Part shown: in pieces, positions 1 to 38,561 of the stretch
Position numbering within the stretch: the first letter of the stretch is position 1
How the letters are laid out: the number at the start of each line of letters is the position of its first letter
NCBI GenBank assembly: GCA_035632415.1
Contig: DASQGW010000132.1
Location: forward strand, 2,563-66,562
From: Burkholderiales bacterium
GTDB taxonomy: Bacteria > Pseudomonadota > Gammaproteobacteria > Burkholderiales > SG8-39
Reading direction: 5' to 3'
DNA length: 64,000 nt
Translations under genes and position numbers: made by a program
The notes under the pieces: model-generated
Seen by the model: only the letters and a program-made list of their open reading frames with translations
Told to the model about the DNA's origin: nothing
The model's database searches: none

Positions 1-823
1 AGTCCTGCAGCATCGACGGTTTGTGCGCCGCGCCGGAGCCGATCTGCCCGCTCGGACCGCCTTTTGGACGATGCGGCGCCTGGTCGACCGCGACGCCGAG
101 CCCGCATGCGATGGCTCGCGCCTCCCCGGCGGCGCGCTCGGCGAGCGGTTTCAGATCGGCGTCGTCCTGGACCTGGCGCACGGTGAGATGGGTCAGCGTG
201 CAGAGCGACGAAGTCCACAGGTTCTGCGCGAGCTTCGCCCAGATCGACTGCCGGATGTCGGCGAGCGGCGGCGAGGCGAGGTCGGCCGCTTCGAGCATGT
301 GGCGCAGCTCGGCGACGAGCGGCGTGTCTTTCGTATCCGGACGCCCGATGACGACCATGTTGTTGCCCGGCACATGGTTCTCGATCACGCCGGGCTCGAC
401 GATCTCGTTCGCCGAATAGGCGACGCCGCCGATCACCCGCTCCGGCGCCACCGCCTTCGCCAGCAAGCCGTCAGGATCGAGCCGCTTCAGCCGCGCGTCG
501 TACCACCAGGGGATGCCGTTCTGCACGAACACCACCGCCGTGCCGGCGCCAAGGAGCGGCGTGCACTGCTCGGCGAACGCGCCGAGCAGGTTCGCCTTGA
601 GCGTGACGAACACCGCATCCTGCTGTTCCAGTTCGCGGGCGCTCGCCGCTGCGCGCACCCGTCCGACGATGGTCTGGCTGCCGTGCAGCAGCTTGATGCC
701 CCGGCTGCGCATCGCCTCGAGGTGCGCGCCGCGCGCGAGCACCGAGACATCGTTGCCCGCCGCGGCGAGCTTGGCGGCGATGTGCCCGCCGACCGCGCCC
801 GCGCCGAAGACGCACAATTTCAT
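1..823 (-). CDS. 2-dehydropantoate 2-reductase family protein (ApbA/PanE-like), 3' end outside window
   Basis: I translated the minus strand from the ATG at comp. 821-823: MKLCVFGAGAVGGHIAAKLAAAGNDVSVLARG... This has a Rossmann GxGxxG N-terminus. The frame stays open to the window edge, so it is missing from the ORF track. The antisense ORF 23..868 is a shadow. Confidence 0.75.
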   Translation of the reverse strand, partial: MKLCVFGAGAVGGHIAAKLAAAGNDVSVLARGAHLEAMRSRGIKLLHGSQTIVGRVRAAASARELEQQDAVFVTLKANLLGAFAEQCTPLLGAGTAVVFVQNGIPWWYDARLKRLDPDGLLAKAVAPERVIGGVAYSANEIVEPGVIENHVPGNNMVVIGRPDTKDTPLVAELRHMLEAADLASPPLADIRQSIWAKLAQNLWTSSLCTLTHLTVRQVQDDADLKPLAERAAGEARAIACGLGVAVDQAPHRPKGGPSGQIGSGAAHKPSMLQD

Positions 824-12767: not shown

Positions 12768-13622
12768 ATGACCGCCCAGGAAAGCCTGCCCGAGCCGTCC
12801 AATCCCCTTGGCATCGACGGCCTCGAATTCGTCGAGTACGCCACCTCGCAGCCGCAGCAGTTCGGCGCGCTCCTGCAGAAGATGGGCTTCGCCGCCGTGG
12901 CGCGCCACCGCTCGCGCGAGGTGATGCTCTACCGCCAGGGCGCGATGAACCTGATCGTCAACGCGCACGAGGCGGCGAGCGGCACGCCCCTCCTCTCGGC
13001 GTTCGCGCTGCGCGTGCGCGATGCGGCCTTCGCGCACAAGCACTCCCTCGACCTCGGCGCCTGGGACATGCCGACGCGCGCCTCGGCCATGGAGCTCAAC
13101 ATCCCGGGCATCCACGGCGTCGCCGAGACGCTCGTCTACTTCGTCGACCGCTACCGGGACTTCTCGATCTACGACGTCGACTTCGTGCCGCTCGCCGGCA
13201 CGCAGCCGAAGCCTCCGGCCATCGCGGGCCTGCATTGGTTCGGCATCGTGCAGTCGATCCTCGGCGATCGCACGGCCGACTGGCTCGACTTCTACGAGCA
13301 CCTCTTCGGTTTCACCGTGCTGCCGAGCGGGCAGTACTTCGGCGTGCTCCCCAAGGGCACGCTGGTCGAGAGCCCGTGCCACAAGTTCTACCTGCAGCTG
13401 ATCGAGCCGCCGCCCGGCGCGGAGGACATCCGCTGGGACGAGAGCCTGGTGCGGGTGGGCCTCGGCGCCACCGATGTGCCGGCGGCGGTCCAGGCGCTCA
13501 AGGCGCGCGGCGTGGTGTTCGTCGATCGCGGCGCGGTGCAGCCGAGCGAGAAAGGCGCGCTGACGCAGCCTTATCTCGGCGGCGTGACCTTCGAGCTCGT
13601 CCACAGCGCGAGGGGAACCTGA
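12768..13622 (+). CDS. VOC-fold, 4-hydroxyphenylpyruvate-dioxygenase-like protein (QuiC C-terminal-domain-like)
   Basis: 284 aa. Begins ...GIDGLEFVEYAT... and has two VOC modules. It is divergent from the TetR/TRAP operon and lies 1 nt upstream of a dehydratase-like TIM-barrel gene. Confidence 0.75.
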   Translation: MTAQESLPEPSNPLGIDGLEFVEYATSQPQQFGALLQKMGFAAVARHRSREVMLYRQGAMNLIVNAHEAASGTPLLSAFALRVRDAAFAHKHSLDLGAWDMPTRASAMELNIPGIHGVAETLVYFVDRYRDFSIYDVDFVPLAGTQPKPPAIAGLHWFGIVQSILGDRTADWLDFYEHLFGFTVLPSGQYFGVLPKGTLVESPCHKFYLQLIEPPPGAEDIRWDESLVRVGLGATDVPAAVQALKARGVVFVDRGAVQPSEKGALTQPYLGGVTFELVHSARGT

Positions 13623-13623
13623 G

Positions 13624-14487
13624 ATGAACCTCGACGACTTCGGCATGGACACCATCACGCTCGCCGGGCCGCTCGAGGCCAAATTGCGCGCGACGCGCGA
13701 GGCGGGCTTCACGCAGATCATGCTGAACGCCACCGACATCGTCGGCCACCCCGGCGGCGAGGCGGCGGCCGTCGCCGCGGTGAAGGCGAGCGGCCTGCGC
13801 GTCACGGGGTTCCAGGTGCTGCGCGACTTCGAAGGACTCTCAGGACACCTGCACGCCTACAAGGTCGATGTCGCCAAGGCGATGCTCGAGATGTGCCGCG
13901 AGCTCGGCTCGCGCGTGCTCCTCATCTGCTCCTCGGCGAGCGCGCATGCGACGGGCGAGCTCGAGGCGCTCGTCAAGGACCTGCGGAAGCTCGCGATGCT
14001 CGCCGCGCCGCTCGATATCCGCATCGCGTACGAAGCGCTCTCGTGGGGCCGGCACGTCAACCTGTACACGCAGGCGTGGGAGCTGGTGCAGGCGGCCGAC
14101 CGCTCGAACCTCGGCATCGCGCTCGACTCGTACCATATCCTCGCGCATGCGAGCGGGCTGGAGCCCCTCGAGGAGATCGAGGCCCGCAAGGTGTTCCTGG
14201 TGCAGCTCTCCGACTTCCTGTGGCAGGAGGTGCGCTCGCCGCAGGACCGCATCGAGACGGCGCGACATTCGCGTGTCTTCCCCGGCGAGGGCGTGCACAG
14301 CGAGAACGTCATCGAGCTCGTGCGCAGCCTCGATGCGATGGGCTACCGGGGCGACTACAGCTTCGAGGTATTCAACGACGACTACAAGCAGCTGCCGCTT
14401 CCGATCGTCGCGCAGCGCGCCCGCGCCTCGGTGAAGTGGATCACCGGCCGCGTGGCGCGCCGCAGCCTGCCGCGCAGGCAGGCTTAG
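13624..14487 (+). CDS. sugar phosphate isomerase/epimerase TIM barrel, 3-dehydroshikimate-dehydratase-like
   Basis: 287 aa. Contains MNLDDFGMDTITLAG...GF..IML and ...RIAYEALSWG...D.YH...EVFND, a pattern resembling QsuB/QuiC N-terminal domains. Confidence 0.75.
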   Translation: MNLDDFGMDTITLAGPLEAKLRATREAGFTQIMLNATDIVGHPGGEAAAVAAVKASGLRVTGFQVLRDFEGLSGHLHAYKVDVAKAMLEMCRELGSRVLLICSSASAHATGELEALVKDLRKLAMLAAPLDIRIAYEALSWGRHVNLYTQAWELVQAADRSNLGIALDSYHILAHASGLEPLEEIEARKVFLVQLSDFLWQEVRSPQDRIETARHSRVFPGEGVHSENVIELVRSLDAMGYRGDYSFEVFNDDYKQLPLPIVAQRARASVKWITGRVARRSLPRRQA

Positions 14488-30238: not shown

Positions 30239-31222
30239 CTACTTGCCGAGCATGTAGAGCTGCCACAAATCCTTGTGGCTCATGTGGAGCATCGGCCGGA
30301 TCGCAGCCAATCCGGTCCGGCCGACGCTTTTCTCCAGATACTTCAGCTCCGCGAATTTCTCTCGCGTGGCGTCATCGACCGGCACGTCGAAGCCGCTCTC
30401 GCGCATCATCAGCACGCCCTTCGCGCGCAGCGCGAGCTCGGTGTATAGGCGAAGGTAAGCGAGGAGATCGGCCACCACCAGGCCCTGGAAGCGGTCCTTC
30501 AGCTGAGAGAGATATTTGCCCACCGGCGAATCCGAAAGGCGGCCGGAATTGATGAGCTCGAGCATCTCGGCGTCGGCATCGAAGCCGCGTCCGAGCCAGT
30601 CGCCCACCGCCGCCTCGCTGCGAGTGAACACGGCGTTCAGCAAGAGCGGCATGACGATGGCCACGCCGGCAGTGGAGAGAAAAGGCGAGAAGAGGAAATG
30701 GTTGAAGGCCGAGTGCAGCACCACGGCCGTCACGAAGCCCGGCAGGTAGGCATAGGGCCGCTCGAGCAGTGCGACGGAGGCGATCGCAAAGATCGCGGTC
30801 GCGCCGCCATGCATGATCGCGGTGCCGAAGCCGCGCACGAACCACGCCGCGAGCCCGGCTTGCGGCGCGATCGCGAGGTAATCGAGGTTCTCGACCAGCG
30901 CGAAGCCCGCGCCGACCGCGAAGCCGAAGATCGCGGCGTCGACGAGGAAGCCGATGCGGTGCGTGCGGATGAGCGCGAAGATCACTGTCGCTTTCAGCGC
31001 TTCCTCGATCACCGGGGAGACATAGCGCGTGTAGAAGGCGAAATCGAAATGCGCGAGCAGCGCGCCGTTCACGAAGTACGCGATCCCGGCGATCACCATG
31101 CCCGCGGCTACGGCGGCGACCACTGCCCGCAGGCGCACCAGCTTGTAGCTATCGAGGAGGACAAGCGCGCCCAGGAAGCAAAGCACCGGAGCGAGGCCGA
31201 GCAACGGGCGCACGAAATTCAT
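30239..31222 (-). CDS. PrsW family intramembrane metalloprotease
   Basis: Starts MNFVRPLLGLAPVL and is polytopic. Has the PrsW motifs EExxK (VIEEALKAT) and HxxxN (LHSAFNH), plus a soluble C-terminal extension of about 100 aa. Its start codon overlaps the stop of the upstream gene by 1 nt. Confidence 0.8.
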   Translation of the reverse strand: MNFVRPLLGLAPVLCFLGALVLLDSYKLVRLRAVVAAVAAGMVIAGIAYFVNGALLAHFDFAFYTRYVSPVIEEALKATVIFALIRTHRIGFLVDAAIFGFAVGAGFALVENLDYLAIAPQAGLAAWFVRGFGTAIMHGGATAIFAIASVALLERPYAYLPGFVTAVVLHSAFNHFLFSPFLSTAGVAIVMPLLLNAVFTRSEAAVGDWLGRGFDADAEMLELINSGRLSDSPVGKYLSQLKDRFQGLVVADLLAYLRLYTELALRAKGVLMMRESGFDVPVDDATREKFAELKYLEKSVGRTGLAAIRPMLHMSHKDLWQLYMLGK

Positions 31223-34191
31223 TACATGATCTTGAGCGAGACCATCCATTCGTCGCCGCTGCGCGTGGCGCCCTTGTAGCCGACGGCATAGCCCACCGAG
31301 AGCGTCATCTCGTACCAGTGCAGGACGCTGAAGCGCAGGTCCGCCTGCGCGCCGACGTTGTTGTAGCGAGTGCGGTAGGAGCTGTCGCTCGGATCGGTCC
31401 ACAGCGCCGTGGCGAAGAGCGCCGGACGCAGCCACGCCAGGTAGAACGCGGGCGTGCCGACCGACTCGAACACGACCGGCGGCAGGTTGGCCTCGAGCAT
31501 GCTGCGGGCGAAGGTGCGCCCACTCAGCTCGTTCAAGTCGAAGCCGGGCATGGAGTAGTAGTCGCGGTAGCGCTTCTCGTTGTGCGCGTCGACCCAGTTG
31601 TTGCCGAAGCCGCCGAAGAAGAAGTTCGCGTAGGGATCCGAGCGCTCGCCGTGCGCGACACCCGCGGCGTTGCGCAGCCAGATCGACGAGTGGCCGAGCG
31701 GCAGCGGCACGCCGAAGTCGAGCCCGCCGCGCAGCTGCGGGCTGAACGTGTCGTTCGCGTAGTTGCTGTAGAAGACCCCGTTCGCGACGATTCCCTTCTC
31801 GTCGTCGACCGCGCCGCGCGACTTGCGCGTATCGGTGTAATAGAGCCCGGCCTCGGCGGTGACGAGCCGCTCCGCGGTCGCCGCGACGTTCTGCGCCGCC
31901 GGCAGCGCGTCGAGGTTGTGGTAATAGGCGAGGTCGGACTTGAAGTCGAGCCGCCGCGGCTCGTCGAAGATGAGCGCCTTGTCGTAGCCGCCGTCGGTCT
32001 GGAAGCCGCGCCGGCTGCGGATCGTCGGGCCGAAGAGGTCGTAGAAGTCCGAGCGGTTGTACGCCGCCCCGGCGTGCCAGTTCAGGTACTGGTAGCGCGC
32101 ATCGACGTGCGTGCGCTCGTTCGACGGCAGGTCCTGCGATGGCGTGAACGCGGCCGTGATGCCGAGCGTGCCGAGGTCGAGCGGGTCGTCGATGAAGACG
32201 TGGTAGCCGATGCCGATCTTGCGCTTGTAGCCTTGCAGCACCGGGTACGCGCTCTCCACGCCCAGGCGCTTGAGCGGCAGGTAGGCGCCCTTGTCGATGA
32301 CGAGCTTCTGGTCGTCCACGGTCGAAGGCGCCGGCACCTGCCAGGTCTTCACCACCGGGTGCTTCTCCGCGAGCTCCGCTCCAAGGAAAGTGATCGCGCT
32401 CACGTCCTTGAGCGGCTTCGGCTCGATCATCGCCGGCACGAAGCCGTCGGCGGTGTAGTGAAGGACGATGAGCTTGCCGTCGTCGAGCGGCACGGGACGG
32501 AAATAGCCCGCCTCGGCGTTCGACACCGCCTCGACGTCGCCGCTCGCCACGTCGTAGCGGAAGATGTTCGAGACGCCGGTGTAATAGCTCGAGCCGTAGA
32601 GGGAGCGGCCGTCCTTCGAGAAGACGAAGCTCTCGGGCACCGAGGTGCCGAACTTGAATTCGCTCACCGGCTTGAATTCACCCTTCAGCACGCGCTCGAG
32701 CTCCCAGACCTTCAGGAACTGCTCGCCGCTCACTTCCGCCACGGACGCGGAGACGAGCCGGCCGTCGGGCGAGATGTCGAGGTCGTACGGGACGACGCCA
32801 TAGGGGAACGTGTAGATCTGATTCCACTCGGTGTAGGGGTACGGGATGCGCACCAGCGTCGCGAGCGCGCTCTCGTGGCGTATGCCGAGGAGCGAGCGGT
32901 CGACCGGGTTGAACACCAGCTCGCCGATGCGCGAATCGGGCAGCAGGTCCTTGACCTCGCCGGTGTCGACGTTGACCGCCATCACGTCGCGCAGCGCATG
33001 GTTGTCGTTCGAGTAGAAGAGCGTGCGGCTCGCCGGGTCCCAGGCGAGGCCGGTCACCTTGTAGAGCAGCGTGTCCTTCAGGTCGACGATACGGCGTACC
33101 TGGCCGGTCTTCGTATCGAGCGCGCCGATGTGCGCCACCACGCCCTGGTAGTCGAACGCGCCGTACAGGATGCCCTTGTCGTAGTACAGGCGCGAGCTCG
33201 AGCCGACCGCCGTCGGCACGAGCTGCCGGTACGGCGTGATCGGCTGCGTGCGCACCTGGGCGAGGTTCTTCGCCTGGAAGTCGCGCTCGAACGCGATCCA
33301 GTCGGCCCAGGCGCGCTCGAGCGGGATGCCGAACACATGCTCGAACTGGTCGGCGTAGTGGCGCTTGCTGTCCTCGTCGCGGCGCAGCCACTGGATCACC
33401 TTCTCGGGCGAATAGGCGTAGGCGAGCCAGGTGAAGAAGCGCGTGCCGTAGAGATAGGCGTTCGATCCCACCTGGAAGTCGATGCGCGTGCCGCGCGAAT
33501 CGAGGCCCAGGGGATCGTAGAAGTGCGCGTGGTCGCGCACCATGGCGCGGAACACCATCTCGTAGAAGCCGCTCTGCACCCGGCCGAGGCCGCCCGCCAT
33601 CCACGTTTCCATGAACACGGCGCTGCCTTCCGCGTACCAGCGAGGCACGGTAAAGCGCGGCACGGTGAGATAGCTGTAGAGCAGCGTCTCGGGATGAGGC
33701 TGCGTCGGGAACACCTTGCCGCCGAAGAAGCGGCGCCACTTGCGGTCGGTCTCGCTCGCGATGTCGGTCGTCGCCACGTGCGTGAGCTCGTGGTTCATGA
33801 TCGAGTACAGGCGCTCGGAGGCCGAGAAGGTCTCGAAGGCATACGAGACGGGCGCCATGTCGAAGCGCAGCGTGTTCCGCGGCAGCGGCGAGGCGCTCGC
33901 GTTGCCGTAGTCCGAGAAGTCCTTCAGGAACACGGTGACCTTCTCGTAAGGCTCCCAGCCGAGGACGCGCCGCTGGAAGGCGAGCGCGTTGGTGAAGGTA
34001 CGCACCGCGTGCGGCGCGAGATAGGAGAGCTGCGGGTCGAAGTAAACCAGCCGCAGGTCCTTCGTCTCGACGAACGAAAGGCCGAGCGGGTTCACTTCGG
34101 CACCGTGCGCCGCGCTTCCGAGCGCGAGCGCCAGCCCGATGATGAGCGAGCGAATGCTTCCCCTCCCCCAGAACGAAACCGCCGACCCCAA
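31222..34191 (-). CDS. large exported protein: HExxH metallopeptidase-like head + PD40/TolB-like beta-propeller repeats + Tyr/Gly-rich C-terminal half
   Basis: Contains IMNHELTHV followed by WYAEGSAVFMETW (Peptidase_MA-like HExxH...E). PD40-like repeats are present (DISPDGRLVSAS, FSKDGRSLYGSS, WDPASRTLFYSN). The 5' end is uncertain. TTG at 34191 is the only canonical option. An in-frame ATT at 34155 sits 6 nt after GGGGAGGGG and would give a textbook signal peptide (M)RSLIIGLALALGSAAHG/AE. The 1249-aa track ORF is an artefactual extension through the repeat array. Confidence 0.8.
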   Translation of the reverse strand: MGSAVSFWGRGSIRSLIIGLALALGSAAHGAEVNPLGLSFVETKDLRLVYFDPQLSYLAPHAVRTFTNALAFQRRVLGWEPYEKVTVFLKDFSDYGNASASPLPRNTLRFDMAPVSYAFETFSASERLYSIMNHELTHVATTDIASETDRKWRRFFGGKVFPTQPHPETLLYSYLTVPRFTVPRWYAEGSAVFMETWMAGGLGRVQSGFYEMVFRAMVRDHAHFYDPLGLDSRGTRIDFQVGSNAYLYGTRFFTWLAYAYSPEKVIQWLRRDEDSKRHYADQFEHVFGIPLERAWADWIAFERDFQAKNLAQVRTQPITPYRQLVPTAVGSSSRLYYDKGILYGAFDYQGVVAHIGALDTKTGQVRRIVDLKDTLLYKVTGLAWDPASRTLFYSNDNHALRDVMAVNVDTGEVKDLLPDSRIGELVFNPVDRSLLGIRHESALATLVRIPYPYTEWNQIYTFPYGVVPYDLDISPDGRLVSASVAEVSGEQFLKVWELERVLKGEFKPVSEFKFGTSVPESFVFSKDGRSLYGSSYYTGVSNIFRYDVASGDVEAVSNAEAGYFRPVPLDDGKLIVLHYTADGFVPAMIEPKPLKDVSAITFLGAELAEKHPVVKTWQVPAPSTVDDQKLVIDKGAYLPLKRLGVESAYPVLQGYKRKIGIGYHVFIDDPLDLGTLGITAAFTPSQDLPSNERTHVDARYQYLNWHAGAAYNRSDFYDLFGPTIRSRRGFQTDGGYDKALIFDEPRRLDFKSDLAYYHNLDALPAAQNVAATAERLVTAEAGLYYTDTRKSRGAVDDEKGIVANGVFYSNYANDTFSPQLRGGLDFGVPLPLGHSSIWLRNAAGVAHGERSDPYANFFFGGFGNNWVDAHNEKRYRDYYSMPGFDLNELSGRTFARSMLEANLPPVVFESVGTPAFYLAWLRPALFATALWTDPSDSSYRTRYNNVGAQADLRFSVLHWYEMTLSVGYAVGYKGATRSGDEWMVSLKIM

Positions 34192-34220
34192 AACGAAACC
34201 GCCGACCTTTAGGCCGGCGG
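34186..34220 (-). terminator. terminator/attenuator-like hairpin between anti-sigma gene and large exported-protein gene
   Basis: The minus strand reads ccgccggcc-taaa-ggtcggcgg followed by tttcgttttg. This is a 9-bp stem with one mismatch and a T-rich tail. Confidence 0.45.
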
Positions 34221-34246
34221 TCCTTGTTACGACTTGTCGGCGGCGC

Positions 34247-35527
34247 TTATTTTGACTGCGAGGCCATCGATGCGGAAGCCGCGGCGGCAAACGCCTGGGG
34301 ATTGGCCGACATCGCCTGCATCGCCTGGGGGTTCGCCGCCATCGCCTGGAACGCCTGCGGATTCGCGGCGAGCGCCTGGAAGGCCTGCGGGTGAGCGGCC
34401 ATCGCCTGGAAGGCCTGCGGGCTCGCGGCGAGCGCCTGCATCGCTTGCGGATTCGCCGCCATCGCCTGGAAGGCTTGCGGGTGAGCGGCCATCGCCTGGA
34501 ACGCCTGCGGGCTCGCAGCGAGCGCCTGCATCGCCTGCGGATTCGCCGCCATCGCCTGGAAAGCCTGCGGATTCGCCGCCATCGCCTGGAAGGCTTGCGG
34601 GTTGGCCGCCAGGGCCTGCATTGCCTGCGGGTTGGCCGCGAGCGCCTGGAAGGCCTGCGGATTCGCCGCCATCGCCTGGAAGGCCGACGGATTCGCCGCG
34701 GCAGCCTGGAAGGCCTTCGGGCTGTTCGCGAAGGCCGCGAAGGCCTGCGGATTGGCCGCCATCGCCTGGAAGGCCTGCGGGCTCGAAGCCATGGCCTGGA
34801 ACGCTTGCGGGTTCGCCGCCATCGCCTGGAAGGCCTGTGGGTTCGAGGCCATCGCCTGGAAGGCTTGCGGATTCGCCGCCATCGCCTGGAAGGCTTGCGG
34901 GTTCGCTGCCATCGCCTGGAAGGCCTGTGCGTTCGCCGCGAGCGCCTGCATCGCTTGCGGATTTGCGGCAACGGCCTGGAACTGCGGATCCTTTATGGCC
35001 TTGACGACCACATCGCTCTGCAGCGCCTGCGCGACCGACTGGTCGGCGAGCTTCACGTCCTTGGTCTGGATCGGCTCGGCCGACCGATAGCGCTGGGCTG
35101 GCGTGATGGTGCCCGCAAGCTGGTCGCTTGGCGGCACGTCGAACACGAAGTAACTCACGCCTGCTGCAATCACGGCCACGCTGACGGCGGCCCACACCAA
35201 GCGCTTACGGGCAAAGGGTGCTTGCTGGCCCATTTGAATCTCCCCCAGAAAAATTGTTGGCAACGATATCCCACTTACGCGCAACCACGAGAAAAGTTTG
35301 TGTGCACCGCGGTATGGAGGTGTGTACTTTTTCACGATTCCCTCGGCCAGGTCCGCCGGCGGATTGACCGCCGGTACCCGCGCCAGGGTCTCGAAAAGCC
35401 CTCGCAGCGCGTCGAATTCGGCCTGCGCCGCCGGGTTGGCGGCAAGGTATTGCCGGAGCTCGCGCTCCTCGGCGGGACTTGCCGCGCCGTCGAGCACCGC
35501 GTGCATCAATTCGGTATGTCGGTTCAT
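34247..35527 (-). CDS. anti-sigma factor with decapeptide-repeat extracytoplasmic domain
   Basis: ATG overlaps the ECF sigma stop as ATGA. The N-terminus MNRHTELMHAVLDGAASPAEERELRQYLAANPAAQAEFDAL is anti-sigma-domain-like. One transmembrane segment (RLVWAAVSVAVIAAGVSYFVF) is followed by about 24 copies of ANPQAFQAMA. An internal ATG (MGQQAPF, preceded by GGGGGAG) could be an alternative start. Confidence 0.8.
   Translation of the reverse strand: MNRHTELMHAVLDGAASPAEERELRQYLAANPAAQAEFDALRGLFETLARVPAVNPPADLAEGIVKKYTPPYRGAHKLFSWLRVSGISLPTIFLGEIQMGQQAPFARKRLVWAAVSVAVIAAGVSYFVFDVPPSDQLAGTITPAQRYRSAEPIQTKDVKLADQSVAQALQSDVVVKAIKDPQFQAVAANPQAMQALAANAQAFQAMAANPQAFQAMAANPQAFQAMASNPQAFQAMAANPQAFQAMASSPQAFQAMAANPQAFAAFANSPKAFQAAAANPSAFQAMAANPQAFQALAANPQAMQALAANPQAFQAMAANPQAFQAMAANPQAMQALAASPQAFQAMAAHPQAFQAMAANPQAMQALAASPQAFQAMAAHPQAFQALAANPQAFQAMAANPQAMQAMSANPQAFAAAASASMASQSK
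34276..34990 (-). repeat. 30-bp tandem repeat array (~24 units) inside the anti-sigma CDS
   Basis: The plus-strand unit is approximately gccatcgcctggaaggcctgcgggttcgcc, repeated head-to-tail without spacers. A 90-bp higher-order period is visible (gtgagcggcc at 34391 and 34481). Confidence 0.95.
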
Positions 35528-36072
35528 GCCGTCGCCATGTGCTTGAGGAGCGTGCGCAGCCGGCCGCGGGCCTCGAAAAGCCGCGACTTCACCGTCTCGA
35601 CCTTGAGCTCGAGGATGTCGGCGATCTCCTCGTAGCTGCACTCCGAGAAGTGTCGCAAGGTGAGCACTGCCCTGTCGGTGAACTTCATCTGCATCAAAGC
35701 CTTCTGCACCTCTTTCGAAACCTGCGCGGCACCGAGCCGCGACTCGGGGTCGGCGTCTTCCGCCGGCGTCCCGTCCCCGCCGTCCTCGAGCGGTTCCTCG
35801 CGGCCGGCGCGGCGCAGCAAATTCAGCGACTCGTTCAGGGCGATGCGGTACACCCAGCTGAAGAACTTGTACCGCGCGTCGTACCCGCCCAGCCGCTCCG
35901 CGACGCGCAGGAAAACCACCTGCGTGATGTCGCGCGCATCTTCCTCGCGGCCGAGCACCCGGAAGGCCGCGTTGTACAGGGGCCTCTGGTACTTCAGTAC
36001 GAGCTGCCTGAACGCGGCGTTGTCGCCGCGGCGCAGGCGCTCGACCAGCGCATCATCGGGCTCCCTGTCCAC
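35524..36072 (-). CDS. ECF (group 4) RNA polymerase sigma factor
   Basis: 182 aa. Region 2 (...RQLVLKYQRPLYNAAFRVLGREEDARDITQVVFLRV...) and region 4 (...CSYEEIADILELKVETVKSRLFEAR) are recognisable. Confidence 0.9.
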   Translation of the reverse strand: MDREPDDALVERLRRGDNAAFRQLVLKYQRPLYNAAFRVLGREEDARDITQVVFLRVAERLGGYDARYKFFSWVYRIALNESLNLLRRAGREEPLEDGGDGTPAEDADPESRLGAAQVSKEVQKALMQMKFTDRAVLTLRHFSECSYEEIADILELKVETVKSRLFEARGRLRTLLKHMATA

Positions 36073-36107
36073 TCAATTACACGCCGGCGGCGGGAAAGTT
36101 GGCGTTC

Positions 36108-36404
36108 TTATTTGGCCGCCTCGATCTCGAAGATCTGGTCGAAGCCCGAATACTGCAGGATGTCGCGCAAGTGCCGGCTGACGCCGGCGAGGCGAAGCTT
36201 GCCGCCCGCGGCCATGAGCCGCTTCTGCGTCTTGAGCAGCACGCCGAGCCCCGCGCTCGAGATGTACTCGAGCTGGCCGCAGTCGAGCGTGACCGTGCCC
36301 GAGACCTTGTCGAGGAAGGACTGCGCGTTCGCGCACTGCGCGGCGTCGAGCCGCCCGGCGATGACCACCGTGCCGGCGGCAGGACCGTTCTCAATCGTCA
36401 GCAT
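36108..36404 (-). CDS. STAS-domain anti-sigma factor antagonist (RsbV/SpoIIAA-like)
   Basis: 98 aa. The LEYISSAGLGVLL motif contains the conserved phosphorylatable Ser position. Overlaps the upstream gene by 14 nt. Confidence 0.85.
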   Translation of the reverse strand: MLTIENGPAAGTVVIAGRLDAAQCANAQSFLDKVSGTVTLDCGQLEYISSAGLGVLLKTQKRLMAAGGKLRLAGVSRHLRDILQYSGFDQIFEIEAAK

Positions 36405-38061
36405 CGATTTTTTCCGTCTTCCTGAAGGTTATGCGACTCGTGCGCTCGTCGGCGGAATAGCGGTACTGGATGGAATCCACCATCTTGCGGATGAGGTGGA
36501 TGCCGAGCCCGCCCGGCTTCCTCTGCTCGAGCGGCAGGTTGATGTCCGCCTCCGGCGCCTGCGTCACGTCGAAGGGCTCGGCATCCGCGTCGATGAGGGT
36601 CACCTCGACGCCGCCCGCGACACTCACGATGTCGATGCGAACCGGCGAGTCGCTCTTTTTCCCGTACTTCACTACGTTCGTGAAGAGCTCCTCGAGGACG
36701 AAGTCGGCGGTGCGCGCGAGCTCCGCGTTCATGTTCTCCCGGGTGAACGCGAAGATCGCTTCCAGCTCGTCGAACGAGCGCTTGAAGCTGCGCATCACGA
36801 CCGGGCCGGCGCGCTTCACCAGCACCACCGTCATGTCGTCGTCCTGCGCTTCGCCGGCAAACGCCGAGATCGCGGCGAAGAGCTCGGCCACGATATCGGC
36901 CGGAGCCTGCCGCTGGTTGCGCGCGATGACGGCCTTCACGCGCTCCTCGCCATACTCCTCGCCCTCGCTGTTCCTCTGCTCGAAGATGCCGTCGGAGACG
37001 AGCGCGAGCATGTCGCCTTCCGCGAGCGTCACCGAGAGCGAAGGCCGCAGGCGCGCGATCGGCATGGCGGCGAGCGGGAAGCTGGTCGGCTTGAAGTCGC
37101 CGAAGCTCCTTTCGGCCGCGCGGTAGACGAGGATCGGTCCTTGTCCGCCGCTGTGGAAGCGCAGCGCGTGCGTCTTCGGATCGAGCAGACCGATGAAGGC
37201 GGTGATGAAGCGGTCCGAGGGCAGCCGCTCGGCGAGCTGGTTGTTCACCTGCCGATAGGCCGTGTCGAGGTCGGCGCCCATGCGGAACGCCATGCGCAGC
37301 ATCGCCTGCATCTGCGTCACCGAGAGCGCCGGGCCGATGCCATGGCCCGTGGCGTCGCCGAGGACGATGAGCAGGCCTTGCTCGATGAGCGCCAGGTCGT
37401 AGGTGTCGCCGCCCGTGAGGTCCGCGGGCTTGAAGGTGCCGTAGACCTCGTAGCCCGGCAGGTACGGCATGGTGGAGGGCAGCGTGCTCATCTGCACGAT
37501 GCGCGCGGTCTCGAGCTGCTGGCGCAGCTTCTCGCCTTCGATCAGCTCCTGCATCATCAGCGTTCGCTGCAGGGCCACCGCGCACTGCGCCGCGAGCACG
37601 CGGCCCAGGTTTTCATCGGCCAGGTCAAACACGCCGTCGGCCTTGTTCAGCAACTGCATGACGCCGACCAGCACGCCCTTGTGGTCGATGAGCGGCAGCG
37701 TGAGGAGGCAGCGCGTGCGGTAGCCGGTCTTCTTGTCCGTGCTCGCATCGAAGCGCGCATCGGCGTAGCAGTCGGGCACGTTGATGATCTGCCGCGTGCG
37801 CGCGCAACTGCCGACGATGCCGGTGCCCGCCGCAATGCGCACCTCCTTGATCTCGTTCGCCACGCGCAGCACGAGCTCTTCGCTGTTCCGGTCGTAGAGC
37901 CAGACCGAGCCGCGGTCGGCATTCAGCACCCGCATGCCGGCATCGACCACTTCCGAGAGCATGGTCTCGAGGTCGAAAGGTGCCGCAAGCTTGCTCGCGA
38001 GCGCGAGGATCGGCTGCAGGTCCCGGGCCGAAAGGTGCTGCTCGCGCGAAGGAGCGTTCAT
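36391..38061 (-). CDS. GAF sensor - PP2C (SpoIIE/RsbU-type) phosphatase - RsbW-like HATPase fusion protein
   Basis: Starts MNAPSREQHL. Three domains are recognisable:
- GAF-like (...DRGSVWLYD...TGIVGSCA...).
- PP2C motifs (GGDTYDL, LGDATGHG, SDGIFE, DDDMTVV).
- C-terminal RsbW-like kinase region (...LEELFTNVVKYG...GGLGIHLIRKMVDS). Confidence 0.85.
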   Translation of the reverse strand: MNAPSREQHLSARDLQPILALASKLAAPFDLETMLSEVVDAGMRVLNADRGSVWLYDRNSEELVLRVANEIKEVRIAAGTGIVGSCARTRQIINVPDCYADARFDASTDKKTGYRTRCLLTLPLIDHKGVLVGVMQLLNKADGVFDLADENLGRVLAAQCAVALQRTLMMQELIEGEKLRQQLETARIVQMSTLPSTMPYLPGYEVYGTFKPADLTGGDTYDLALIEQGLLIVLGDATGHGIGPALSVTQMQAMLRMAFRMGADLDTAYRQVNNQLAERLPSDRFITAFIGLLDPKTHALRFHSGGQGPILVYRAAERSFGDFKPTSFPLAAMPIARLRPSLSVTLAEGDMLALVSDGIFEQRNSEGEEYGEERVKAVIARNQRQAPADIVAELFAAISAFAGEAQDDDMTVVLVKRAGPVVMRSFKRSFDELEAIFAFTRENMNAELARTADFVLEELFTNVVKYGKKSDSPVRIDIVSVAGGVEVTLIDADAEPFDVTQAPEADINLPLEQRKPGGLGIHLIRKMVDSIQYRYSADERTSRITFRKTEKIDADD

Positions 38062-38123
38062 TGGCCGCCGAATGTAGCCATCCGGCAGCCATTTGTCAGG
38101 CCTTGGGTGTACGCTAGGCCCCG

Positions 38124-38561
38124 ATGCTTCGCATCCTCCTTCTCCTCCTTGCGGCGGTACCGCTGGCACAGGCGGAGACCTACAAATGGGTGGACGAGCG
38201 GGGTGTCGTGAACTACTCCAATGCGCCGCCGCCGGATTCGGCGAAAGGCGCGATTCCGGCGCAGACCGTGCCCGACCGGATCTCCAGCTATCAGACCGAT
38301 CCGGCCACCAATCCGTCGATCGAGGTCTATCGCCGGCTCGACGCGAACCAGCAGGACTGGCTCCAGCGCCAATACTTGATGGCGATGCAAGCCGCTGCGG
38401 CGCCGCAACCTGCGACGAATTCTTACGATTACGGGCCCTATTACTACCCCGCCTACGGCGTCGTACCCGCGCGGCGCGGCTTCCACCGCGGCGGCGCGGC
38501 GTTCACACCGATCAGGTCCGGTCCGCATCCGAATCCGCGCGCATCTCTGCGCCGCTTCTAA
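38124..38561 (+). CDS. DUF4124 domain secreted protein
   Basis: Signal peptide MLRILLLLLAAVPLAQA followed by the hallmark ETYKWVDERGVVNYSNAPP. Confidence 0.8.
   Translation: MLRILLLLLAAVPLAQAETYKWVDERGVVNYSNAPPPDSAKGAIPAQTVPDRISSYQTDPATNPSIEVYRRLDANQQDWLQRQYLMAMQAAAAPQPATNSYDYGPYYYPAYGVVPARRGFHRGGAAFTPIRSGPHPNPRASLRRF

Follow-up and report, generated by a model that had tools for sequence, protein, structure and literature searches.

We analysed a cassette of six genes in a 64,000-nucleotide window (the whole stretch of DNA under study, ~67% G+C) from a Burkholderiales bacterium (GenBank assembly GCA_035632415.1, contig DASQGW010000132.1, positions 2,563 to 66,562). All six genes lie on the minus strand and encode, from upstream to downstream, a fusion of GAF, PP2C and RsbW-like domains, a STAS protein, a sigma factor of the extracytoplasmic function (ECF) type, a membrane anti-sigma factor, a large HExxH protein designated here as BIG and a PrsW-family protease (Table 1). 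These genes almost certainly form one functional unit, in which a membrane-protease core appears to have been joined by two accessory modules. Gene coordinates were taken from the open reading frame (ORF) listing and translation and domain calls from Pfam thresholds, and both bore out the original prediction of six co-directional genes, with the PP2C, GAF, HATPase_c_2, STAS, ECF sigma and PrsW calls all scoring above threshold. The G+C content at third codon positions is 0.81–0.93 in the six proposed frames and falls to ~0.5 in the upstream extensions of the ORFs, which supports the start codons originally proposed. The predicted 14-nt overlap of the fusion and STAS genes follows from the coordinates, and the ATGA overlap of the sigma and anti-sigma genes and the 1-nt overlap of the BIG and PrsW genes (TAATG) can be read directly in the sequence. 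BIG, predicted at about 980 aa, has 989 residues when translated from TTG 34191, with ATT 34155, behind a strong Shine-Dalgarno sequence (GGGGGAGGGG), also possible as its start. A 1249-aa ORF (31222..34971, minus strand) was rejected as a gene, being the BIG frame left open through the anti-sigma repeats with an arginine-rich off-frame translation.

The cassette is conserved in related genomes. A scan of one genome per GTDB species for relatives of BIG yielded at least 590 genomes, from which 80 loci were taken and compared by tblastn with the domains of the window. The order GAF, PP2C, RsbW, STAS, sigma, anti-sigma, BIG and PrsW is kept on one strand in 40 of the 45 loci with enough upstream DNA, and PrsW lies downstream of BIG in 77 of 83 loci, so that the loss of synteny that would have counted against the predicted cassette was not seen. 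These loci belong to Usitatibacteraceae, Casimicrobiaceae, other Burkholderiales, three gammaproteobacterial genomes and one bin labelled Anaeromyxobacter. Three contigs with BIG homologues 65–70% identical to that of the window have an identical gene order between entirely different neighbours, and the RsbW-like domain occurs in them in three different fusion states. Across 46 loci, GAF-PP2C-RsbW is fused and STAS separate in 26, GAF-PP2C, RsbW and STAS are all separate in 14, GAF-PP2C is separate from an RsbW-STAS fusion in 3, and the remaining 3 show another or a broken arrangement.

Table 1 Coordinates of the six genes, their protein domains and the associated DNA elements in the window (aa, residues of the encoded protein)
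Feature	Position	Strand	Description	Basis
GAF-PP2C-RsbW-like fusion	36391..38061	-	556 aa	Pfam
GAF domain	aa 30-165		in fusion protein	
SpoIIE/PP2C domain	aa 228-417		in fusion protein	
HATPase_c_2 kinase-like domain	aa 440-543		in fusion protein	
STAS protein	36108..36404	-	98 aa	Pfam STAS_2 + STAS
ECF sigma factor	35524..36072	-	182 aa	Pfam Sigma70_r2 + Sigma70_r4_2
Membrane anti-sigma factor	34247..35527	-	426 aa	Translation
RsiW-like class I anti-sigma domain	aa 1 to ~85		in anti-sigma factor	Profile match
Transmembrane segment	aa ~109-131		in anti-sigma factor, after linker	Translation
Juxtamembrane motif GTITPAQRYR...KDVKL			after transmembrane segment of anti-sigma factor	
10-aa repeat ANPQAFQAMA			23 copies, periplasmic tail of anti-sigma factor	
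Tandem 30-nt repeat	34290..34982	-	23.1 copies, encodes low-complexity tail of anti-sigma factor	
Internal Shine-Dalgarno GGGGGAG + ATG	35231..35249	-	Met99 (35233-35231), would start short X isoform	
BIG (large HExxH protein)	31222..34191	-	989 aa from TTG	
Signal peptide	aa 1-30		in BIG	
HExxH...E peptidase-like alpha/beta + helical domain	aa 38-313		in BIG	AlphaFold2
TolB-like beta-propeller	aa 330-590		in BIG	AlphaFold2; TolB structural and sequence-profile matches
Helical linker	aa 603-642		in BIG	AlphaFold2
C-terminal beta-barrel	aa 644-989		in BIG, ~16 long strands	AlphaFold2
PrsW-family protease	30239..31222	-	327 aa	Pfam PF13367
Sigma-70-like promoter candidate CTGACA-17-TACATT	38071..38099	-	62-nt gap between fusion gene and DUF4124 gene	
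Promoter-like motif CCAACTT-N12-CGTGTAATT	36075..36102	-	ends 2 nt before sigma GTG start	
Degenerate second motif copy CAAACTT-N14-CGTAAGT	35273..35300	-	linker between anti-sigma domain and transmembrane segment	
GC-rich hairpin ACCGCCGGCC-TAAA-GGTCGGCGGT then T-rich TTCGTTTTG	34189..34221	-	between anti-sigma gene and BIG	

Several loci depart from this layout. In five Steroidobacteraceae loci (L071, L080, L081, L083 and L044) neither PrsW nor a partner switch adjoins BIG; an ECF sigma orthologue with the CCAACTT...GTGTAATT motif lies, together with a short anti-sigma gene, ~5 kb downstream of BIG, which amounts to an alternative arrangement of the same cassette parts. An insertion of ~1.5 kb separates BIG from PrsW in L019, and one of ~2 kb separates STAS from the sigma gene in L045, with a copy of the promoter-like motif on either side.

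Judged from its sequence, the sigma factor is an ECF (group 4) member of the RpoE/AlgU/SigW-like kind, with 102 bits against TIGR02937 (NCBIfam cut-off 42.9) and AlgU (97.7 bits), sigma-E (79 bits) and SigW (79 bits) as its nearest solved relatives; no NCBIfam equivalog reaches its cut-off for this protein. The anti-sigma factor has no Pfam anti-sigma match as a single sequence. A profile of the first 95 residues of 34 orthologues, by comparison, matched Bacillus subtilis RsiW (PDB 5wuq_C) over nearly its full length (E=2.1e-8), followed by weaker matches to RskA, MucA and RseA, and 26 of the 34 orthologues matched the zf-HC2 anti-sigma family. No zinc-binding HxxxCxxC motif is visible in the anti-sigma protein of the window.

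The remainder of the anti-sigma factor has a separate identity. The membrane protein of loci lacking a sigma gene begins just before the transmembrane segment ('MNQQASPATRK..WI..') and matches the window's anti-sigma factor from Met99, where 'MGQQAPFARKRLVW' corresponds to 'MNQQASPATRKTTIW'. We refer to this stand-alone form, which consists of a short cytoplasmic stub, one transmembrane segment, a GTI.PAQRYR...DVKL motif and a low-complexity tail, as X; the anti-sigma factor from Met99 onward equals X. It is encoded alone in L005, L006, L064, L011, L060, L161 and L122. The type of repeat in the tail differs by lineage (ANPQAFQAMA, GNAAG, DGRG, NQQAKV), and the juxtamembrane motif is conserved from Proteobacteria to low-GC loci from rumen metagenomes. 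The reading that the anti-sigma domain and X are separate genes merged by a chance open frame was rejected for the betaproteobacterial clade, because in over 30 loci of that clade a single uninterrupted ORF, beginning at the sigma stop codon, spans both. The anti-sigma factor has a transmembrane segment of its own, with X as a separate gene, in three gammaproteobacterial loci and the distant L161. On these comparisons the window's anti-sigma factor is an RsiW-like domain fused to the cytoplasmic end of X, a lineage-specific arrangement, and an internal start within its ORF probably also exists (Table 1). L161 also carries a second X-like gene (13045-13875; transmembrane segment and GTIAKAEKYRKQTMTERDIQL) just downstream of BIG, besides the upstream one. 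The ANPQAFQAMA repeats (34247-34990) gave sub-threshold matches to the eukaryotic STI1, ubiquilin and XPC-binding families, which are Met/Gln-rich client-binding helices; the matches are probably a compositional effect, with a chaperone-like binding surface as the alternative.

Loci that lack some of the parts reveal how the cassette is built. Five loci have neither a sigma gene nor a cytoplasmic anti-sigma domain and are otherwise intact, and they include the closest relatives of the window (BIG 78–80% identical). The partner switch is kept in four of them (L006, L011, L060 and L064), with RsbW domains 55–71% identical, and in the fifth (L005) the sequence breaks off upstream of STAS. Another 80 loci, distant ones of 39–61% G+C, came from a metagenome scan whose seeds were BIG proteins ~30% identical to that of the window, and were searched with hidden Markov models built from cassette orthologues. 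PrsW lies beside BIG on the same strand in ~68 of these 80, the remainder being mostly truncated contigs, and orthologous ECF sigma genes (146–171 bits) and PP2C/RsbW/STAS genes are present in ~12 and ~10 of them, the latter in several gene orders. All four combinations occur, namely core only, core with sigma, core with switch, and all three; in the core-only loci of the rumen type, X is directly upstream of BIG and PrsW directly downstream. Because all four combinations exist and the sigma-less cassettes keep the switch, X-BIG-PrsW appears from gene content to be an ancient core that two accessory modules, the sigma/anti-sigma pair and the partner switch, join independently of each other. 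The low-GC contigs from rumen and other metagenomes that carry the core probably belong to Bacteroidota.

BIG belongs to a large family. A protein search returned more than 6000 relatives, all called 'hypothetical protein' where named and mostly from metagenome-assembled genomes of Burkholderiales or Usitatibacter, and among 50%-identity representatives 2905 clusters were found at E<=1e-3, with full-length relatives down to ~25% identity. By the origin of these relatives, the window comes from an uncultured betaproteobacterium of soil. The AlphaFold2 model of full-length BIG (40 homologues) reached a pLDDT of 81.9 and a pTM of 0.79, and comprises the domains listed in Table 1. The HExxH call of the original prediction stands insofar as the motif is conserved, since H134, E135, H138 and E188 show no variation in 40 close homologues and are kept at 90% or more in 28 distant ones, and the ligand pattern of gluzincins (clan MA), HExxH with a downstream glutamate, is present; no Pfam domain reaches threshold in BIG (Omp85_2 19.4 versus 23.1 bits, PD40 weak). 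PF19143 is precomputed on several BIG homologues. Peptidase_MA_2 was matched in 4 of the 28 distant members (best E=1.7e-5), and the listed member P0145 lies below its cut-off (18.1 versus 32.4 bits). Pfam detects no POTRA domain, and what stands between the propeller and the barrel is a short helical linker. Searches with the full-length model were dominated by the propeller (TolB, LRP6), with no match for the N-terminal domain or the barrel, and sequence profiles from close and from diverse alignments retrieved only TolB-type propellers from the PDB. When residues 31–325 were modelled alone, the pLDDT was 58, worse than for the same region of the full-length model, and we set this domain-only model aside as evidence; a fold search with it gave nothing significant, the best hits being M1 aminopeptidases (E=0.75). 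BIG is thus a putative beta-barrel protein of the outer membrane that also carries a gluzincin-like domain and a TolB-like propeller, a more specific prediction than the original one of an exported protein. Two distant homologues (P0152 and P0175, ~1210–1226 aa) are extended at the N terminus by ~280 aa, and P0175 gives a weak match to AMIN, a periplasmic localisation domain; this match would fit a periplasmic orientation of the soluble part of BIG.

The PrsW protein scores 56.6 bits against PF13367 (cut-off 23.5), and its EExxK, VEN, MHGG and HSAFNH motifs are conserved in 75 sequences; the Bacillus-type PrsW equivalog of NCBIfam is not reached (24 versus 225 bits). Outside the Pfam model lies a C-terminal domain of ~130 aa that is strongly conserved in the same 75 sequences and recurs in the distant proteins of L161 and P0145. 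In one representative, PrsW and BIG are fused in frame, with this domain ahead of the BIG signal peptide, and the domain would therefore be cytoplasmic. There is precedent for PrsW proteins that carry fused cytoplasmic signalling domains (PMC3482391), and in B. subtilis RsiW is cut by PrsW at site 1 and then by RasP at site 2 (PMC3498285). Action of PrsW on the adjacent anti-sigma factor, as originally proposed, finds good support in the RsiW-like domain of the latter, the RpoE/AlgU/SigW-like sigma factor and the conserved PrsW motifs. PrsW-dependent proteolysis of the anti-sigma factor is likely by this analogy, since its anti-sigma domain resembles RsiW, a known PrsW substrate.

The partner switch is well defined in its parts. 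The fusion protein matches GAF (70.8 bits), SpoIIE/PP2C (141 bits) and HATPase_c_2 (58.9 bits). Its GAF domain carries the cyclic-nucleotide NKFDE motif ('NKADGVFDLADE'), with NK-x4-F-x3-DE conserved in 43 orthologues, and its best PDB matches are the cyclic nucleotide monophosphate (cNMP)-binding CyaB2 (1ykd, E=7e-34), PDE2A, PDE10A and PDE5; by these features it is of the cyclic-nucleotide-binding type, with such a nucleotide as putative ligand. The PP2C-kinase portion matches Mycobacterium tuberculosis Rv1364c (PDB 3ke6, E=4e-11), and all four PP2C metal-binding motifs (GGDTYD, GDATGHG, SDGIFE and DDDMT) are conserved. The STAS protein scores 59 bits against Pfam STAS_2 and 62.3 bits against TIGR00377 (cut-off 53.45), and 49 sequences share the YISSAGLG motif with its phosphorylatable serine. 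The kinase-like domain retains the N-box Asn and the G2 box, but its G1 box reads D-x-D-[VA]-E-x-F, without the DxGxG glycines throughout the family. The original prediction had one ECF sigma factor wired to two input layers, the switch and a proteolytic cascade; this is not supported as stated, since the switch is kept in sigma-less cassettes and distant loci combine the core either with the switch and no sigma gene or with a sigma gene and no switch. Because the switch persists without the sigma gene and joins the core without it, its target more likely lies within the core, and we put the chance that its action is on the core and not the sigma factor at about even. Within the core, the conserved C-terminal domain of PrsW, predicted to be cytoplasmic, is the best candidate target, in line with the known fusions of PrsW to cytoplasmic signalling domains.

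Two copies of a promoter-like motif were found in the cassette (Table 1). In 41 of 48 loci the core dyad of the first, CCAAC-N16-TGTA, precedes the sigma gene, compared with four at most in shuffles; the spacer is fixed in length and free in sequence across aligned loci, the motif ends 0–4 nt before the sigma start codon (usually GTG) with no Shine-Dalgarno sequence visible, and it is absent from sigma-less loci. The second copy, degenerate in the window, is near-consensus in ~27 loci, ~240 nt into the anti-sigma ORF and upstream of the internal Met of X; in the window it is followed by GGGGGAG and then by ATG at 35233. By their sequence the motifs may be sigma-dependent promoters with an AACTT -35 element, as for RpoE/AlgU, of which the first would be autoregulatory and the second would drive short X, BIG and PrsW. 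An extra copy lies downstream of PrsW in L074 (14144), possibly marking another regulon member.

A GC-rich hairpin precedes BIG (-45.8 kcal/mol, z-score -3.6 on folding); it was missed by a simple terminator scan and found by folding and a custom scan. Of 76 loci, 71 carry its stem, (A)ACCGCCGGC...GCCGGCGGTT, and a T-rich tail ~50 nt ahead of BIG, and the stem sequence itself is nearly constant, not its pairing capacity alone. The hairpin is terminator- or attenuator-like and might act in attenuation, in RNA stability or as a binding site for a protein; no Rfam family reached its gathering score in the cassette. With two sigma-type motifs and a conserved hairpin before BIG, a single transcript is doubtful, and the six genes are probably not simply cotranscribed. 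A 20-nt direct repeat of 2.1 copies (CCCCAAAACGAAACCGCCGA on the plus strand, 34166-34207) overlaps the 3' arm of the hairpin and the presumed TTG start of BIG. The sigma-70-like candidate upstream of the fusion gene is a weak consensus match only, with one site found against 0.7 expected by chance. The cassette is bounded upstream by a divergent DUF4124 gene 62 nt away, followed by a GFA gene, and downstream by a convergent lactonase gene and an aldehyde dehydrogenase gene. The DUF4124 gene (38124-38561, plus strand) encodes a secreted protein and is not conserved beside the cassette in the other loci whose flanks were examined.

We suggest a serial mechanism, comprising proteolytic release of the sigma factor, feedback and a switch acting on the core, to which as a whole we assign a probability of roughly 0.45. 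In this model X would cross the inner membrane once and extend a long, disordered tail into the periplasm, BIG would be an outer-membrane barrel with its HExxH peptidase-like domain and TolB-like propeller in the periplasm, and PrsW an inner-membrane protease with a cytoplasmic C-terminal domain. At rest, the anti-sigma domain would keep the sigma factor at the membrane. On an envelope signal, BIG would process the periplasmic tail of X and PrsW would cut X near the membrane, in parallel with the site-1 cleavage of RsiW in Bacillus, after which a general site-2 protease and cytoplasmic proteases would release the sigma factor. Freed sigma would transcribe its own gene from the CCAACTT-N12-CGTGTAATT promoter and also short X, BIG and PrsW from the internal promoter copy, giving feedback. 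The partner switch, probably sensing a cyclic nucleotide, would most likely gate the protease core from the cytoplasm and not through sigma binding. We infer all protein–protein contacts, the cleavage events, the order of the proteolytic steps, the topology of BIG and the GAF ligand. Taken singly, a direct proteolytic role for BIG is possible, with the balance tipping slightly to the other side. A wider reading, in which X-BIG-PrsW is an undescribed trans-envelope proteolytic sensor of ancient origin, to which different lineages added as optional modules a sigma output and a cNMP-sensing switch gating PrsW from the cytoplasm, is more speculative and on the unlikely side, taken jointly with its assignment of an outer-membrane barrel protease, inner-membrane PrsW and a disordered tether spanning the periplasm.

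Several observations weigh against this serial mechanism. The peptidase fold of BIG is unconfirmed, the domain-only model being poor and its fold search not significant, and a type V-like surface display of the soluble domains of BIG, which may apply, would keep them away from X. Kinase activity and phosphorylation of STAS are uncertain because the G1 box is non-canonical. The existence of core-only and sigma-less cassettes implies that the core has a function beyond releasing this sigma factor. The promoter-like motif abuts the sigma start codon, implying either a leaderless or near-leaderless GTG mRNA, which would be unusual, or an atypical promoter geometry, and the hairpin could uncouple the expression of BIG and PrsW from that of the regulator genes.

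Other explanations of the same gene set were considered. That the six genes are neighbours without a shared function is effectively refuted by synteny: the same order is kept between different flanking genes in 40 genomes, which makes chance adjacency unlikely, the parts are re-assorted yet still linked in distant phyla, the stop and start codons of adjacent genes overlap, and fusions join PrsW with BIG, RsbW with PP2C or STAS, and the anti-sigma domain with X. A different wiring would make the RsbW-like domain a second, cytoplasmic anti-sigma factor that binds the ECF sigma factor and is displaced by dephosphorylated STAS, while PrsW and BIG independently degrade the membrane anti-sigma factor, leaving the sigma factor to integrate two inputs. 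In favour of such a parallel arrangement, binding to sigma factors is classical for RsbW-type domains, the switch genes are directly upstream of the sigma gene in 40 loci and the PP2C and STAS residues are intact. It does not account for the retention of the switch in L006, L011, L060 and L064 despite loss of the sigma gene and anti-sigma domain, nor for the distant loci that have only one of the two, and we regard it as improbable. No interaction of RsbW-type proteins with ECF sigma factors or class I anti-sigma domains has been described (PMC7406223).

X-BIG-PrsW might also be a machine for envelope maintenance or quality control that belongs to the regulon of the sigma factor and is not its sensor; PrsW would then spare the anti-sigma factor, and sigma would be controlled by the anti-sigma domain alone, perhaps via the switch. 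The internal sigma-type motif upstream of short X, BIG and PrsW would be expected under this explanation, as would the many rumen-type loci with a core and no sigma gene at all and the conserved hairpin that separates the regulator genes from BIG. It is harder to reconcile with the more than 30 loci in which the anti-sigma domain and X itself are fused and with the specifically RsiW-like character of that domain, RsiW being a known PrsW substrate; moreover, a target of the sigma factor may also be its regulator, such feedback being common. We give this explanation a low probability, similar to that of a second cytoplasmic anti-sigma factor, and retain the serial mechanism as the preferred one.

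The components of the cassette are of known kinds; what is undescribed, as far as we found, is the way they are combined, together with the families of X and BIG and the modular architecture. The original prediction likewise knew of no system with this gene content, and none was found in the literature searched, which had subscription journals outside its coverage; the main text of the ECF classification paper mentions no PrsW, STAS or PP2C context. Among the closest known systems is sigma-W/RsiW/PrsW/RasP of B. subtilis, which shares the RpoE/SigW-type ECF sigma factor, the single-pass anti-sigma factor with an RsiW-matching domain and the intact PrsW motifs. The cassette differs in having prsW in the cassette of the sigma gene and a Gram-negative host, in the periplasmic part of its anti-sigma factor, which is a long low-complexity repeat of the X family, in the lack of a visible HxxxCxxC, in the additional C-terminal domain of ~130 aa in PrsW, and in the addition of an outer-membrane HExxH/propeller protein and a partner switch. 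The Escherichia coli sigma-E/RseA/DegS/RseP system is similar in its RpoE-like sigma factor, its AACTT-type -35 element and the proposed link of outer-membrane state to anti-sigma proteolysis, whereas here the site-1 cut would be made by PrsW and/or a metallopeptidase-like outer-membrane protein in place of a DegS-type serine protease, and no RseB homologue is present in the cassette of the window.

As in RsbU/RsbV/RsbW and SpoIIE/SpoIIAA/SpoIIAB, a PP2C phosphatase, a STAS protein with a conserved serine and a GHKL kinase-like domain are encoded together, although the adjacent sigma factor belongs to the ECF group, not to group 3, and is paired with a membrane anti-sigma factor of its own, the G1 box of the family is atypical and the switch persists where the sigma gene is absent. 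Rv1364c of M. tuberculosis likewise combines PP2C and an RsbW-like kinase domain in one polypeptide, but its sensor is a PAS domain, whereas the sensor here is a GAF domain of cNMP type, with STAS separate in the window and fused to the kinase domain in 3 orthologous loci. In Bordetella, the ECF sigma gene btrS lies beside the PP2C/STAS/kinase switch BtrU/BtrV/BtrW in a type III secretion locus. The likeness to this system is one of gene content. The flanks of the cassette in the window (DUF4124, GFA, lactonase and aldehyde dehydrogenase) contain no secretion genes, and PrsW, BIG and a membrane anti-sigma factor are present in addition.

ECF sigma factors count among the principal signalling systems of bacteria, and the destruction of their anti-sigma factors is known for few models. 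The cassette would be a Gram-negative counterpart of sigma-W/RsiW/PrsW with the proteases encoded beside the sigma gene, and it provides a first functional context for the BIG family, which has relatives in at least 590 species-level genomes, forms 2905 clusters at 50% identity and is annotated throughout as hypothetical. The data also suggest that fusion of a sigma-binding domain to a protease substrate already in place is one way in which an anti-sigma factor can evolve. The hosts are abundant and barely studied betaproteobacteria of soil and wastewater (Usitatibacteraceae and Casimicrobiaceae), in which the cassette ties a cyclic-nucleotide-type GAF switch to an intramembrane protease system, a link not described in the literature searched. 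If the switch does gate PrsW, this would be a new output for partner switching and an 'inside-out' control of regulated intramembrane proteolysis.

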